This document shows positions 11,817-61,698 of a stretch of 64,000 bases of DNA, piece after piece. The stretch spans positions 12,433 through 76,432 of the forward strand of contig CATMHQ010000001.1 of assembly GCA_950068325.1 (NCBI GenBank), read 5' to 3'. Position numbers and translations under genes: made by a program. The stretch comes from an uncultured Fidelibacterota bacterium (GTDB lineage Bacteria > Fidelibacterota > Marinisomatia > Marinisomatales > UBA1611). The notes under the pieces are model-generated. The model saw only the letters and a program-made list of their open reading frames with translations. It searched no databases and was not told the DNA's origin. Numbering within the stretch: the first letter of the stretch is position 1; every line of letters begins with the position of its first letter.

Positions 11817-12788
11817 ATGACGGATTCATCCTTTCGGTCTGCCTTATTCAATCAAGACAGGCAAGCCTGTCACAAATTCTATTCTAAAAATATCTCTGGC
11901 ACCCCGCTCGTTCAATTATTGAATGACCTTTTATTTTGCAGCGTTTCTATTTCATTACAATCGTTGAATGATATTCATCCAGTTTGTATCTTGAATTCAA
12001 TCAAGAATTTCATTGGGGATGATCGGGAAAATCCTTCGAAACCACTCCTTGAATTTTCGGTTGATTATTTATGTGCTTTTGAATTCCGAGATGATGATCA
12101 AACACAATTAGATGAGGTCGTTAGAGATGGCATTGGGCTTACAGCATTTCTCGGTGATTTGGAAGATGCCTGTCAACAAGGGAAATGGGAAGAACTACAG
12201 ACATTAACCGCCAAAACATTTATGGCTTCAGACCGATCTCGTGGGACTATGGATGCATTGGCAGAGTTAGCACTACAAGATTGTGAAAGAAATGCCATTT
12301 TCATTTTTCATTTATTGCGTGCTTATCAATTCAAGGATGCAAAAAAAGATACCTGGGCATTTACAAAATGCATTCTGGAGTGGATGAGTGGAAAAGCATT
12401 GCTAGAACCTCATGATCAGGCAGATTCATCTCCGAGTAAAATTCATGATTTGATGATTGAATCCGGTGACCTTTCATTATTGGCTTCAGTTTCAAGATTA
12501 TGGGAGGGTGATTATGTCAGAATTCGAGGATATCAGAGAGAAATAAGTCATTGGTGTTCCCAGACCTTTTTTACCGCATCAAATATTAAGCCAAGTCCCG
12601 ACCATTGGCTATTGAAAGATAAAAAGAGAAATTTTATCCATGAAGCAGAAACCATTGTTAAAAGTCAAAAATCCCAATCTGAAAAAGCAAATGCATTGGT
12701 AATTTTAGAGGCGGTGAGAACCCTTTTTAAAACAGCTTCGCCAACCCAACTTGGAATCCTTGGCGCAAGATTAGATCAACTCATATGA
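11817..12788 (+). CDS. Hypothetical protein (predicted helical)
   Basis: 323-aa ORF in operon context, overlapping the next start. No recognised motif. Confidence 0.6.
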   Translation: MTDSSFRSALFNQDRQACHKFYSKNISGTPLVQLLNDLLFCSVSISLQSLNDIHPVCILNSIKNFIGDDRENPSKPLLEFSVDYLCAFEFRDDDQTQLDEVVRDGIGLTAFLGDLEDACQQGKWEELQTLTAKTFMASDRSRGTMDALAELALQDCERNAIFIFHLLRAYQFKDAKKDTWAFTKCILEWMSGKALLEPHDQADSSPSKIHDLMIESGDLSLLASVSRLWEGDYVRIRGYQREISHWCSQTFFTASNIKPSPDHWLLKDKKRNFIHEAETIVKSQKSQSEKANALVILEAVRTLFKTASPTQLGILGARLDQLI

Positions 12789-40521: not shown

Positions 40522-42165
40522 ATGAGACAGATATTTATTTCCATCATCTTCCTGAATGTTCTTTCAGCGCAATCCTCCACTTGGGATATTATCCAAGATA
40601 CGATTTGGACACCGAAGTGTGTAGTATGTCATGATCATGGGCTTTATTTTGCAGAACAATCAGGGTTAATCCTGGCTGAAGATGTGGCCTATGAAGAAAT
40701 AATCAATGTAATGCCAAACAATTCTGCCGCAGCTGAAGATGGCCTCTTATTGGTGGGAACAGAAGGCATAACCAGTGTTTATTCCAGTTTTCTCTGGGAA
40801 AAGATTAATGCCAATGATTACGAACATTTTTACCAAGAACATCCTGAATATGGAAACCTCATGCCCCTGGGAATGGCATTTCTCACCAATGGGGAATTGG
40901 AATTCATCCGCCAATGGATCATCGCCGGCGCACCGGAAACCGGCGAAGTAGTTGATGCAAATCTTTTAGACGATACAACCGTTTTTGAATTGCCGGAATT
41001 CGTACCCCTTCCATTACCGGAGAATGGCGTTCAATTTCATTTAGGTCCTTTTGAAGTACCACCCCAATTCGAAAGAGAATTATTCTACTACACAGAAGTT
41101 GATACTCAGGGCATCCTTTTTGTGAATCGAATCGAAACTGCCTTGGCGCCTGGAAGTCACCATTTTATTGTTTACACCTATGATGATGACCTTCCATTTC
41201 AATTGCCTGAATTAAATATTATTCGCGATTTACGATATCCGGATGGGAGCTACAACCAGTATGTTTTATATTACATGGCTTTCCAAAAATTTATTACCGG
41301 GACACAAACCCGGTTTTTTGACTATAGACTCCCTGAAGGTGTTGCCCTAAGAATTGATCCGTCTTTTGGATTTGACTTGAACGTTCATTATCCCAATTAT
41401 TCCAACGAAACAATCATTGGGGAGGTTTATAACAATTATCACTTTGTTGATTCAACCGAGGTGGATCATATCGGAAAGATCCTGCAGTTGGATAAATTTG
41501 ACATTGTATTACCACCCGGTGAAGAGACCACATTGAATAAAATATTTTGGATGGATGAAGCAATTGGGGAAACCATTTCCATTTTTCAATTATGGTCTCA
41601 TGCCCATAAGCATAATATCAATTTCAAGGTTTTTCGGGTGAGCCAAACCGATCCTGATTATCAGGAATTGGTTTATCTGGCTCTGGACTGGGATCATCCA
41701 CCGATCATAGAATATGATCCACCCATGGTTTTTCATGAAGGTGATGGTCTTGAACTGGAAGCGACCTTTTACAATGATACAGATGAGGAAATCAATTTTG
41801 GATTGTTGAGCACGGACGAAATGATGATTCTGTTTGGATTGTATTATGAGGGTGAAGAATTGGCAACGGATGATAATGTTGAACCTCTACCTACCGAATT
41901 TGGAATCATGAAAATTTATCCAAACCCATTCAACCCAAGCACCACAATCCGGTTTGATACTCCGGTAGTAGAGACTCGATTTATCACGTCTCTACAAATA
42001 TTTGACATAACCGGGCATTTGGTGGAAACGTTGATAGATGGAACAGCCGAACCGGGAACACATGAAATTCAATGGAATGCATCTAGGCAATCCAGCGGGA
42101 TTTATTTTGTGCGGTTGCAAAGCCGTGAATTTGTGGAAACACAGAAAATTGTGCTGGTGAAATGA
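40522..42165 (+). CDS. Secreted c-type cytochrome / copper type II (PHM/DBH-like) monooxygenase fusion with a C-terminal sorting domain
   Basis: Signal peptide; CVVCH (33-37), GNLMP..WI.AGA; GSHH (213-214), VHY (289), SHAH (360/362), EMM (434); YPNPFNP tail. Confidence 0.8.
   Translation: MRQIFISIIFLNVLSAQSSTWDIIQDTIWTPKCVVCHDHGLYFAEQSGLILAEDVAYEEIINVMPNNSAAAEDGLLLVGTEGITSVYSSFLWEKINANDYEHFYQEHPEYGNLMPLGMAFLTNGELEFIRQWIIAGAPETGEVVDANLLDDTTVFELPEFVPLPLPENGVQFHLGPFEVPPQFERELFYYTEVDTQGILFVNRIETALAPGSHHFIVYTYDDDLPFQLPELNIIRDLRYPDGSYNQYVLYYMAFQKFITGTQTRFFDYRLPEGVALRIDPSFGFDLNVHYPNYSNETIIGEVYNNYHFVDSTEVDHIGKILQLDKFDIVLPPGEETTLNKIFWMDEAIGETISIFQLWSHAHKHNINFKVFRVSQTDPDYQELVYLALDWDHPPIIEYDPPMVFHEGDGLELEATFYNDTDEEINFGLLSTDEMMILFGLYYEGEELATDDNVEPLPTEFGIMKIYPNPFNPSTTIRFDTPVVETRFITSLQIFDITGHLVETLIDGTAEPGTHEIQWNASRQSSGIYFVRLQSREFVETQKIVLVK
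41968..41995. repeat. GTAG-family REP palindrome inside a CDS (copy 3)
   Basis: GTAGAGACTCGAT-TT-ATCACGTCTCTAC (2 stem mismatches) encodes VETRFITSL. Confidence 0.85.
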
Positions 42166-57624: not shown

Positions 57625-58712
57625 TTATTTGAGCAAAACTGCTCGTTTTGTTCGCAAAATTTCACCATCCAATTTTAATTGGTAAAAATAAACGCCCGAA
57701 CTGAACTTATCTGCATTCCATAAAATGGATTGCTCACCTTGGCGTTGATCTCGATTCACAAGCGTTTCCACTAATTTCCCATTGATGTTGTATATCATGA
57801 TTTCAACAAAACCGAAACTCGGATTTTCATAACGGATGTTTGTTGTGGGATTAAACGGATTGGGGAATAATTGTAGGCTGGTGGATTCAGGAATTATATT
57901 TTCATCTATTTCGGCGTTTTCACTTTCAAAAACTGTGATTCCTTGCAATATTTTTTCGCTGAAATCAAATAGAACCAAATTATTGGACAAATCATCCAGA
58001 GAACCGTGCCACCATGGATAGTAGGATTGTCCAATGATATCAATGGATGCATTCTCATCAAACAAATTTGAAAAAACCAAATCCCGCCACTACTTAAATG
58101 TCCAATCGTCCAAACGGTATCCGTTTCATCGATAGCTTCTTGAATTCCAGAAATCGCATGGTTAAATAGAATCCCTAAATTTTGCCATTGAGTGTCTGTG
58201 TTTGACTCATCACAAACGTACCCATCAGGCCATAAAAATCCACAATCCGTTTCATTACCAATTTGGATGAATTTTGGAAGAGTCCCTTGGGCTTTAAATT
58301 TGGTAACTACATTTTTTGTATAATGGAATACACTATCCGATAGAGTCTCAAAATCCAATGCTTCCCATGCGGATGGTTTTGTTTGATTGCCAGGGTCTGC
58401 CCAAGTATCGGAATAATGAATATCGAGCATAAGATCCAATCCTAAAGTATCAATTCTTTGTGCCATTTGAAGGACTCTCGGTAATCCATTGTAATCTAAT
58501 ATGGGAGTATGCCATAGTTTTAGTCTGACCACATTTACACCATGATCTTTAAAAATTTCTATGGGGTCTTTCTCAATACCATTTTCGTAAAAGACACCAC
58601 CATTTTGTTCAACTTGATACAAGATGGAAATATCAACACCTTTGATAAATCCAATGGATTGGGCGTAAATTTGTTCGTCAAAAATAAAAATAATGATAAA
58701 AAGTAGTCTCAT
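57625..58712 (-). pseudogene. GH53 arabinogalactan endo-beta-1,4-galactanase with a sorting domain; frameshifted and internally shortened
   Basis: KGVDIS, HYSDTWADPGNQ, QIGNE in one frame; SYYPWWHG and FPNPFNP in another. The shift lies at the T6 run (58071-58076). The segment bearing the nucleophile ET motif is missing. Confidence 0.8.
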
Positions 58713-58751
58713 TTTTAACACAATCATGTATCTATTGAATTAAATACCTAT

Positions 58752-59798
58752 TTAAAATAGAATTTCTAAAAACTCTGATCCTTTGGGACAATTATTCATT
58801 GAATATTCCATTCCACCAGGGATAGTGATCGAATCCCCCTCTCCAAGATCATATTTGTCCTTTCCCTGGATTTGGATTGCCATTCCACCGCGGAGCAAAA
58901 AGATAAAATGAAATTCGGTATCCTGTTGTGCGGTGAATATTTCATTCTCTCCTGATGATCTAACCACTGAAGCCTGTGCAATTCCATTCGTAGCTGGAAA
59001 AAACCCAAAATCCCGTGCTTCAAATCCGGGATATCGCCACGGACGCCATTCTGCCTTTTTTGCAATATGTTGCACAAAATTTTGTCCATTATAATCCCGA
59101 TCGGGACTTATTTCACGTGTAGGCAGATCTAATTCCGGATCGGTACAGGTCATGTGGCTTGCAGGCGAACTGATTTCCACCACTTCAAATCCATCCGAAT
59201 TTTCAAGCACGCGATGACGAATTTCCGGCGGCTGCAAAACGCAGTCACCCGCTTGAAAAATAAAAGGCTTACCCTGGTCTTCATAAACCAATTTTGCCCA
59301 GCCTTTATAACAATAAATCATTTGAAACCGAATCTTATGAAAATGGACGTAATCCGGAACCGGTCCGGCTTTGGGGATTCGAAGGTGTGAGGCGATAAAC
59401 CGTCCGCCATATCGATCCGGGATAAGGTCACGATATTCCATGCCGGCCCGACCGATCTTCCATTGCCCGTCCTTCAGTTTTGAATACTGGATGGATTGAT
59501 TTCCTTCTGGGAGAGAATAGGAATCATTTGATTCATGAAACTGAATTACAGTCCCATTCGGCGCTCTTAGATTTTTAGAATTTTCACCGGTAATTGAAAT
59601 GGTTCCGGGATGAATTGTATCATTATTTATAAAACGAATTCTTAATCCAAATCCAACCATGATAGCTTCATCGGGATCATCGGCCGGGAATATTGATTCT
59701 AATTGAAATCCCAGTTCGTCTGAAAAAAAGGATACTGTTTCATTTATATTTCCAGAGGGGAGAACAATTTCAGCCGTTTGATGATCAGTCCCTGTCAT
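58752..59798 (-). CDS. VOC/glyoxalase-like plus double cupin domain protein
   Basis: FFSDELGFQLESIFPADDP; GRAGMEYRDL, PDYVHFH, GDCVLQPPEIRHRV; second cupin LGEGDSITIPGG. Confidence 0.8.
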   Translation of the reverse strand: MTGTDHQTAEIVLPSGNINETVSFFSDELGFQLESIFPADDPDEAIMVGFGLRIRFINNDTIHPGTISITGENSKNLRAPNGTVIQFHESNDSYSLPEGNQSIQYSKLKDGQWKIGRAGMEYRDLIPDRYGGRFIASHLRIPKAGPVPDYVHFHKIRFQMIYCYKGWAKLVYEDQGKPFIFQAGDCVLQPPEIRHRVLENSDGFEVVEISSPASHMTCTDPELDLPTREISPDRDYNGQNFVQHIAKKAEWRPWRYPGFEARDFGFFPATNGIAQASVVRSSGENEIFTAQQDTEFHFIFLLRGGMAIQIQGKDKYDLGEGDSITIPGGMEYSMNNCPKGSEFLEILF

Positions 59799-60340
59799 TA
59801 TTTCATTTCACTTTCAAGGTCAACACCCAAGCCTTCGGCGATGCGATTTATATAATTAAAATAGGAAACAACCTGTGCTGCATCGCTAATAGCATTTTCA
59901 GAAAAGCCAGTTTTTTTGAGAACATCAATATCTGATTTTGTCATATCACCCGGCGTCAGGGTCAATTTTTCAGCCCAGGCACAAAGTGCTTTATCTTTTG
60001 CAGATATATCTGCCTTTTTCCAATCTTTCTTTAATTGCTCAGCTAATGATTCATCCCCGACTTCAACCCGGAAGTCATTCCCATGGGCTTCGATTCAGTA
60101 TTTGCAGTGATTCACTTGGGAAACGACGGTAGCGATCATTTCCCTCTGTGCCCGGGATAGTTCCGATTCGCCAAACATGATTGCGAGATACAAGCGCATG
60201 GATTCTTTCAAGGCAGCCGGGCTACGGCTCATGATCTTTAAAATATTGTAAACACGGCCAGATCGGCGAATCCCTTTGTCATATTCATTTTTAACAATTC
60301 CTTCAGTTTGATCAATAGCAACTGTTTTTATGTAAGTCAT
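59798..60340 (-). CDS. AhpD/CMD-family peroxidase-related selenoprotein (CxxU), 180 aa
   Basis: REMIATVVSQVNHCKY-TGA-IEAHGNDFR...AEKLTLTP...GFSENAISDAAQVVSYFNYINRIAEGLGVD; the frame stays open to the TAA at 59798-59800, which overlaps the next ATG. Confidence 0.88.
60059..60076 (-). promoter_or_regulatory. Candidate bacterial SECIS hairpin
   Basis: GACTTC-CGGGTT-GAAGTC begins 18 nt after the in-frame UGA; G at the second loop position. Confidence 0.65.
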
Positions 60341-60342
60341 TT

Positions 60343-61698
60343 TTAGTCCATTTCCTCAAGGAGATCTTGATTCATCCGGGCTTCATAATCAAATCCTTCT
60401 TTTTTCCCCAGTGATCGCCCAATCCAATAGATCCCGGTTCCAATAAGTCCGCCAATCAAGACCCAAAGAAAGACGTTTGGTAAGGTTATGATTGTAAAAT
60501 ATCCCATGGAGAGAATAACAATCCCACCCATGAGCCATAGGACCGGAATGGGTGGTTTGAATTTTGCGGATTCATACAAGGACGGGTTCACGTAAGGAAG
60601 ACTAATTAATGCAATACCCTGGATCAAATAAATAATGAATATTCCAACCAATCCTGTGTTCAATAAGAATAGTGCTGATTTGGTCCAGATGAGACCAATA
60701 CAGATCACAGCGCTAATGATCAAACTCACATGGGGCGTCCGCCAGGTTGGATGGACCTTTGAAAGGATGGGGGGCAGCAGACGGTCTTCGCTGAATACAA
60801 AAAACATCCTGGAGGGAACAAGAATGGACCCATTGATACTGGTCAAGAAAGCACTCATGGCGCCAATGGCAACTATGCCCGATCCCCAAGATGGTAAATA
60901 AACGCCTGCAGCATCCGCCATGGCAGATTGAGACGTTGCCAAAGCTTCTGCCGGGAGTACGCCAAAAGCCACAAATGACATCAGTACGAAGATCACAACA
61001 GAGATCAAAACACCACGAATAAAGATCATGGGTAATGTCCGGGTGGGATCCTTTGTTTCACCCGCAATCTGGGAGAGGGTTTCAAATCCTGCATAACTGA
61101 AAAACAGCATGGGCATGGCTTTCATAAGTCCACCCATTCCTTTGGGTAAAATCGGGTCATAATAGGAAAGATCGACGGCGAATAATCCGGGAATGACCAA
61201 TACCAAAATGCTGATGATCAGGATTCCCAACATGAAGGTTTGAATATGGCCATAATGTTTGATTCCGATCATGTTGATCCCATAGAAAAAAATGAGTGCG
61301 ATTGTGGCCCACACTTTTGGATCAGCAGTAGGATAGAAAAATGTCAAGTATTCCCCAAAACTTGTGGACATGAAAGCAAGGGCACCAATAAAGGCGATGA
61401 GTTTCATCCACATGGCAATGAATCCCAGGTAATAGCTTTTGAAGGTCCTGGAAATATGAATGTAGGCACCACCGGGGCGATTCCCAAGTGGTGTGGAAAC
61501 AAATACACTATAGGTGAGAGCTGTGCAAATAATAATCGGTGCAAAAAGGAGATAGGCGAGTGGGACCGAAGATCCAGCCACCGCACCGGCTTCTCCCGTC
61601 ACCCTGAAAATACCGGCTCCAACCAAAATACCGATTATGGTGGCATACCCGGAAATAGGCCCAAGATCCCGGCGGAGTTTGTTTTGTTTATTTACCAT
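60343..61698 (-). CDS. APC family amino acid permease
   Basis: LRRDLG, GILVGAGIF, GGAY, FFSYAGFE, AGETKDP, HPTWRTP. Confidence 0.92.
   Translation of the reverse strand: MVNKQNKLRRDLGPISGYATIIGILVGAGIFRVTGEAGAVAGSSVPLAYLLFAPIIICTALTYSVFVSTPLGNRPGGAYIHISRTFKSYYLGFIAMWMKLIAFIGALAFMSTSFGEYLTFFYPTADPKVWATIALIFFYGINMIGIKHYGHIQTFMLGILIISILVLVIPGLFAVDLSYYDPILPKGMGGLMKAMPMLFFSYAGFETLSQIAGETKDPTRTLPMIFIRGVLISVVIFVLMSFVAFGVLPAEALATSQSAMADAAGVYLPSWGSGIVAIGAMSAFLTSINGSILVPSRMFFVFSEDRLLPPILSKVHPTWRTPHVSLIISAVICIGLIWTKSALFLLNTGLVGIFIIYLIQGIALISLPYVNPSLYESAKFKPPIPVLWLMGGIVILSMGYFTIITLPNVFLWVLIGGLIGTGIYWIGRSLGKKEGFDYEARMNQDLLEEMD

Follow-up and report, generated by a model that had tools for sequence, protein, structure and literature searches.

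A probable AhpD-like selenoprotein encoded across an in-frame UGA in an uncultured Fidelibacterota bacterium

The 64,000-nucleotide stretch of DNA analysed here (the window; positions 12,433 to 76,432 of the forward strand of contig CATMHQ010000001.1, GenBank assembly GCA_950068325.1, from an uncultured bacterium of the Fidelibacterota) carries on its minus strand a gene, 60340..59798, that in all likelihood encodes a genuine selenocysteine (Sec)-containing protein: an AhpD-like, CMD-fold member of the TIGR01926 family with Sec, specified by UGA, at position 82. The gene has stayed hidden only because standard ORF prediction ends at the TGA, and its correct annotation would be a single selenoprotein of 180 residues, not a stub of 81. 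It is one more case in a well-described and abundant family of marine selenoproteins, missed by standard gene calling, and knowledge of selenoproteins is unchanged by it. Mildly new are a stem-loop with a CGGGAU loop, common to unrelated genes of the genome as a putative selenocysteine insertion sequence (SECIS), and a conserved adjacency of the gene to an APC permease.

The read-through frame and its predicted product

The frame opens with an ATG at 60340 and runs through 81 sense codons to a lone in-frame TGA, codon 82 at 60097..60095, in the context N77-H-C79-K-Y81-[TGA]-I-E-A-H86. Beyond it lie 98 further sense codons (IEAH ... AEKLTLTP ... FNYINRIAEGLGV) and a TAA at 59800..59798, the final A of which is also the A of the ATG of the next open reading frame (ORF; 59798..58752, junction TAATG), giving a coding sequence of 180 codons plus the stop. 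An earlier examination of the window from its letters alone (the sequence-only reading) had reported an ORF stopped at NHCKY* by the TGA at 60095-60097, 98 more codons and a TAA overlapping the next ATG; it did not state the strand, and with the gene placed on the minus strand the whole arrangement is confirmed. Given the base composition of the window (41.3% G+C), the chance of 98 open codons is about 0.0015.

Translated with TGA as U, the protein scores 157.9 bits against the NCBIfam model TIGR01926 (cut-off 81.8), with residues 4-174 aligned to profile positions 3-174 of 178, and Pfam CMD matches it at 43.5 bits (cut-off 23). As the TIGR01926 match spans the UGA, the sequence to either side of it belongs to one domain. 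Chains of AhpD-like proteins in the PDB align over residues 15-173 with E values from 3e-29 to 5e-18, and in the alignment to 6k40 the segment ...NRCVYCAVSHG... falls on NHCKY[U]IEAHG, so that the CxxC...H of the former lies on C79-x-x-U82...H86 of the latter. The first residue of this CxxU motif, Cys79 (TGC, 60104..60106), is Cys in 31/31 orthologues, and N77, Y81 and H86 (the last encoded at 60083..60085) are invariant across the 31 sequences of an alignment with database homologues (alignment A1). Equally invariant there is Glu67 (60140..60142), 15 residues ahead of U82; this candidate proton-relay residue may be the counterpart of the relay Glu of AhpD.

The proposed course of decoding draws on the established bacterial Sec pathway and on parts found in the genome. 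At the UGA (60097..60095) the ribosome would meet a hairpin, beginning 18 nt downstream, that recruits SelB with Sec-tRNA(Sec); Sec82 would then be inserted in place of termination, and translation would continue to the TAA at 59800..59798. In the resulting product the invariant Glu67 would lie near a C79-x-x-U82-x-x-x-H86 centre, and by analogy its most likely function is that of an AhpD-type thiol/selenol oxidoreductase, which would reduce peroxides or re-reduce an oxidised partner via a U82-C79 selenenylsulfide. Selenium incorporation, the contact between SelB and the hairpin, and the nature of the enzymatic substrate are all matters that we infer.

The UGA codon in its genome and among relatives

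The machinery for such decoding is present in the genome, a 2.2-Mb bin of 120 contigs that is 79% complete and 5% contaminated. The genes selA (505 bits) and selB (343 bits) adjoin on contig C22, selD (401 bits) lies at C63:208-1131 (L008), and a tRNA-Sec scores 62.9 bits in Rfam (gathering score 47) and is called by ARAGORN as tRNA-SeC with anticodon tca; all four are above their curated cut-offs, which upholds the supposition of the sequence-only reading that this organism uses selenocysteine. The selD gene itself contains an in-frame TGA, in SHGSGUACK, at the usual Sec/Cys site of SelD.

When 301 genomes of the same class were searched in six frames, 78 of them gave matching rows, 97 in all. 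All 43 orthologue rows (61-99% identity) contain exactly one TGA, and not the TGC or TGT in close relatives that the sequence-only reading had named as part of a refutation. Its position was checked in 31 loci out of these 43 rows: it falls at the same codon in every one (31/31), within the motif N.C.YU.E[AS]H, and the downstream frame is open in all. In a second paralogue group, which is at roughly 39-47% identity and includes a copy in the window's own genome, the TGA stands in N.CHYU in 10/10 loci examined. Eleven rows are stop-free, two of them with inadequate coverage of the site; stop-free homologues at 33-38% identity have CxxC there, e.g. NKCHYC and NGCSYC, as read in three copies (L030-L032, 33-37%). 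Among the 30 database homologues of alignment A1, the Sec column is Cys in 11 and Trp in 19. The UGA thus aligns with the second Cys of the CxxC..H motif in homologues, as had been proposed. The Trp forms come mostly from short metagenome contigs and are probably instances of TGA translated under code 4 by the gene caller.

Estimates of dN/dS against the window gene point in the same direction on both sides of the codon. Among the four closest orthologues they are 0.165-0.20 for codons 83-177, and over all pairs with an estimable dS they are 0.06-0.25; for codons 2-81 they are 0.04-0.21, except for one pair with saturated dS. Judged by these ratios, the region past the TGA is translated and under purifying selection.

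How that region comes to be translated admits other accounts, of which the best survivor, itself very unlikely, holds that termination at the UGA is dominant and that the downstream part arises from an internal start or from low-level near-cognate read-through inserting Trp or Cys. Sec insertion is known to compete with termination, and many public entries for homologues are C-terminal fragments of 100-115 amino acids that begin right after the UGA. The 'starts' of these fragments, however, are merely the codon following the TGA re-read as an initiator. The window gene itself has AUC as codon 83, and its first potential ORF start 3' of the UGA would leave only 55 amino acids, which makes a separately translated C-terminal piece implausible; moreover, one AhpD domain and the CxxU...H centre straddle the break, and the hairpin together with the Sec machinery offers a specific route to Sec.

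Still less credible is a plain nonsense mutation or sequencing error, under which the gene would be a pseudogene giving an 81-residue fragment. ORF finding under translation table 11 does end at NHCKY*, and broken copies do occur in the group: a 44th copy (G026:C20:2718-3264; L029/L040) is divided between two reading frames close to the Sec codon, which may mark either a pseudogene with a frameshift or faulty assembly. Against this, the 31 loci that share the TGA come from separate assemblies, none of them interrupts the 98 downstream codons, which evolve under purifying selection, and the Sec machinery of the genome is complete; the nonsense account is already contradicted by the conservation data. 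The weakest account, with a negligible claim to credence, would have TGA read as sense everywhere (code 4 or 25), with Trp or Gly at position 82, as the 19 Trp homologues would suggest, but stop-free homologues have Cys and not Trp at this column, the in-frame TGAs found in the genome fall on known redox Cys sites (in SelD, peroxiredoxin (Prx), SelW-like and AhpD-like genes), a dedicated tRNA-Sec is present with selA and selB, TGA terminates 11 of the 44 window ORFs of at least 200 amino acids at natural protein ends, and the genome encodes RF2 (519.8 bits against a cut-off of 370). In this organism TGA retains its general meaning of stop.

A candidate SECIS downstream of the UGA

The hairpin to which Sec insertion at codon 82 is attributed, GACUUC-CGGGUU-GAAGUC at 60076..60059, begins exactly 18 nt after the UGA and is just as the sequence-only reading had described it. 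Its six-base-pair stem joins 60076-60071 (GACUUC) to 60064-60059 (GAAGUC) around a loop, CGGGUU, at 60070-60065, which starts 24 nt after the UGA; in this genome an additional U60077-G60058 wobble pair flanks the stem, so that the putative SECIS core occupies 60058..60077 on the minus strand. The bacterial SECIS (bSECIS) model, as quoted in the accessible part of a 2026 review, comprises a loop of 3-9 nt, an upper stem of 4-16 bp, a G within the first two loop positions, a UGA-to-loop distance of 16-37 nt and a minimum free energy (MFE) of at most -7.5 kcal/mol (PMC13188914). With a 6-nt loop in which positions 2 and 3 are G, a stem of 6-7 bp and a spacing of 24 nt, the hairpin fits the model in that form, which answers the check for a bacterial SECIS that had been called for. 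The MFE of the 63 nt from the UGA onwards is -11.8 kcal/mol, and the hairpin is included in that structure.

Two lines of evidence single out this hairpin. Firstly, it is conserved: over 31 orthologues pairing is kept in 184/186 stem cells, and among the controls only the one in which the pairing partners were slid separates it (98.9% of cells paired, against 19-54%). Synonymous diversity drops to 0.19-0.20 over codons 87-94 from 0.555 in the rest of the gene, these codons providing the two lowest of 116 sliding six-codon windows; Phe90 is UUC in 31/31 orthologues and Arg91 is only ever CGG or CGU. Secondly, it recurs: a 7-bp stem with the loop CGGGAU lies 21 nt beyond the UGA of two peroxiredoxin genes of the same genome, both with a TPGU motif. 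In a genome-wide scan for hairpins with CGGGWT loops, filtered for an in-frame TGA 21-24 nt upstream that has over 60 open codons to either side, only those of the AhpD-like gene and of the two peroxiredoxin genes pass, a specificity that is due to the demand for an in-frame TGA and long open frames; 24 hairpins of this loop type have a stem of 5 bp or longer genome-wide, as against 8-16 in five mononucleotide shuffles, only a modest excess.

One must also consider a number of observations that weigh against the hairpin as a SECIS or against the selenoprotein interpretation as a whole. The hairpin alone is weak, at -6.9 kcal/mol, and folding of the 81 nt around the site does not outperform shuffled sequence (z = 0.77), so that it is conservation and recurrence, and not energy, that give the hairpin its significance. 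Conservation itself is open to a second reading, in that the stem overlaps the conserved peptide D-F-R-D-E-V, so that part of it operates at the level of the protein. Compensatory double changes were found neither among 9 nor among 31 orthologues, all 12 variant cells that preserve pairing are G-U wobbles while 2 of the 186 cells are unpaired, and column shuffles reach the observed pairing in 500/500 trials with 31 orthologues and in 384/500 with 9. A scan of 59700-60450 against Rfam, with E up to 10, gave four chance-level matches (E of at least 6) and no SECIS family; Rfam is not known to have a general bacterial SECIS model, and this null result consequently says little. The sel genes, moreover, lie on contigs other than that of the window, in a bin 79% complete and 5% contaminated, and the case for selenium incorporation and for a full-length protein is indirect, built from sequence.

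The sequence-only reading had taken the hairpin to display the SECIS form of the organism, and this is supported within limits. The near-identical stem and the CGGGAU loop in the two peroxiredoxin genes speak for it, but other Sec genes of the genome use other loops, GUU in a SelW-like gene and AGUUG in a UxxC Prx-like gene; the stem-loop of selD, read by eye, is a short GGUC-CGGGU-GACC. The hairpin is one common SECIS form of the organism, not the sole one. The hairpins of the AhpD-like gene and of loci L063 and L064 all span codons for (F/L)-R-(D/V)-E, and a SECIS element common to the AhpD-like and the two peroxiredoxin genes would imprint the same peptide on unrelated proteins. In its general form, the preferred SECIS of the lineage would have a stem of 6-7 bp and a CGGGAU hexaloop and begin 21-24 nt after the UGA. 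That such a lineage-preferred element is employed across non-homologous genes, and that the AhpD-like gene and its permease neighbour form a substrate-linked unit, is a joint proposal that we put forward tentatively and hold to be rather doubtful.

Two extensions of the hairpin were considered and rejected. The seventh, U-G pair (alignment columns 33/52) is kept in 9/9 close relatives and in only 16/31 of the wider set (A5), and so is no part of a conserved core, and the lower CCC/GGG stem in the MFE structure of the window gene is not preserved in relatives. In the second paralogue group (group B), short hairpins lie over the codons for G-E-G-L-L in differing registers, and no single structure could be fixed.

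Family context, neighbouring genes and further candidates

AhpD-like proteins have long been established as selenoproteins, in agreement with the statement of the sequence-only reading that Sec forms of AhpD/CMD-like proteins exist. In the portions of the literature accessible here, an AhpD-like family is named among the new selenoprotein families of the Sargasso Sea in 2005, with a predicted SECIS shown in one legend (PMC1088965); the GOS analysis of 2008 places 'AhpD-like 1' (COG2128, CxxU) fourth by number among prokaryotic selenoprotein families, counting 299 Sec forms and 902 Cys homologues (PMC2398784); the 2026 review has an entry 'AhpD-like protein, TIGR01926, CxxU' (PMC13188914); and browsing is illustrated with this family in the BSepDB paper (PMC13326102). 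The window protein shares with this Sargasso Sea and GOS family the TIGR01926 model, the CxxU motif, the pairing of Sec and Cys forms and a predicted SECIS with a G in the apical loop. There is no difference of substance, the window copy being merely unannotated in its bin; its lineage additionally has a second Sec paralogue and the APC permease adjacency. A search for literature on selenocysteine in Marinimicrobia, SAR406 or Marinisomatota found nothing relevant among the titles listed.

Other CMD-fold families lie further away. Against the TIGR00777 model of AhpD the protein scores 18.4 bits, under the cut-off of 191.95, and it is not an orthologue of the AhpC-reducing enzyme of Mycobacterium tuberculosis; the two presumably have in common the CxxC-xxx-H arrangement of the active site and a Glu some 15 residues ahead of it. 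It also falls outside two CMD-fold families for which NCBI likewise recognises Sec forms, namely NF041238 (AhpD_rel_CFYUT; 66 bits against a cut-off of 175, with only the C-terminal half of the 357-position model matching) and the YciW-related NF053654 (22.4 bits against 310). The AhpD-like proteins in the PDB, 6k40 (alkyl hydroperoxide reductase AhpD), 3c1l (Mlr4105), 2pfx, 2oyo and 2prr, have Cys where the window protein has Sec and are only modestly identical to it; to go by the depositors' titles, their physiological substrates are largely uncharacterised too.

The public record of the family is systematically wrong at the Sec site: among the entries P0002-P0035 and P0056-P0121, many from short contigs show a Trp there that is probably spurious, and many others are fragments of about 101-115 residues whose first codon is the one after the TGA. 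One homologue entry is titled 'MAG: peroxidase [Candidatus Neomarinimicrobiota bacterium]'. Four Cys-form homologues of about 50% identity (P0036, P0037, P0038 and P0043) carry Thr where the first Cys would stand (S/Q-T-R/Q-Y-C) and so retain only the residue that corresponds to Sec.

Immediately upstream of the AhpD-like gene, on the same strand, lies a gene for an APC-family amino-acid permease (61698..60343; Pfam AA_permease_2, 131 bits), the stop of which stands 2 nt before the selenoprotein ATG; downstream, the overlapping ORF at 59798..58752, likewise on the minus strand, encodes a cupin-domain protein of 348 amino acids (Cupin_2, 48 bits). By their layout in the sequence, the permease, selenoprotein and cupin genes form a tight co-directional unit, with the permease gene in the same operon as the selenoprotein gene. 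The cupin gene is adjacent in 6/31 orthologue loci, in close relatives only, and the permease in 24/31. The permease and the AhpD-like gene thus make up a conserved two-gene unit, a pairing that hints at an enzyme working on an imported amino-acid-like substrate, or guarding against it, and not at a general peroxidase partner; all 31 loci come from one order, and the adjacency may therefore simply reflect shared ancestry. In the accessible parts of the AhpD-like selenoprotein literature no mention of a linkage to APC permeases was found.

Elsewhere in the genome, a second AhpD-like paralogue of TIGR01926 type (C33:7070-7600; L036), 44% identical to the window protein, has an in-frame TGA in N-Q-C-H-Y-U, making both CMD-family genes found in the genome Sec forms. 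Further candidate Sec genes lie at C3:51804-52187 (L063), C23:24059-24421 (L064) and C11:7201-7596 (L065). Two peroxiredoxin candidates carry the T-P-G-U motif; a SelW-like CxxU gene (EYCSVUNY) adjoins the second of them (L064), and a Prx/Trx-like UxxC candidate (FAPGUPVCS) has a C-terminal sorting-type domain. The count for the bin comes to at least seven Sec genes: a lineage with a small genome invests in selenocysteine for several redox enzymes, and the re-annotation proposed for the window gene is equally due for its paralogue, for selD, for several peroxiredoxin-type genes and for many homologue entries in public databases. The window ORF at 40522-42165 was considered as a selenoprotein and rejected, for although 53 codons are open after its TGA, a sorting-type domain at the C-terminus already forms the natural end of the protein.

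Downstream of the cupin gene, a glycoside hydrolase family 53 (GH53) gene on the minus strand (window 57625-58727) appears broken. Its ORF at 58727..57906 covers only profile positions 1-186 of 340, and the rest of the gene seems to lie in a second, overlapping ORF of a different frame (58080..57625), which closes with a C-terminal sorting-type sequence; the break would be due to a frameshift or to misassembly.

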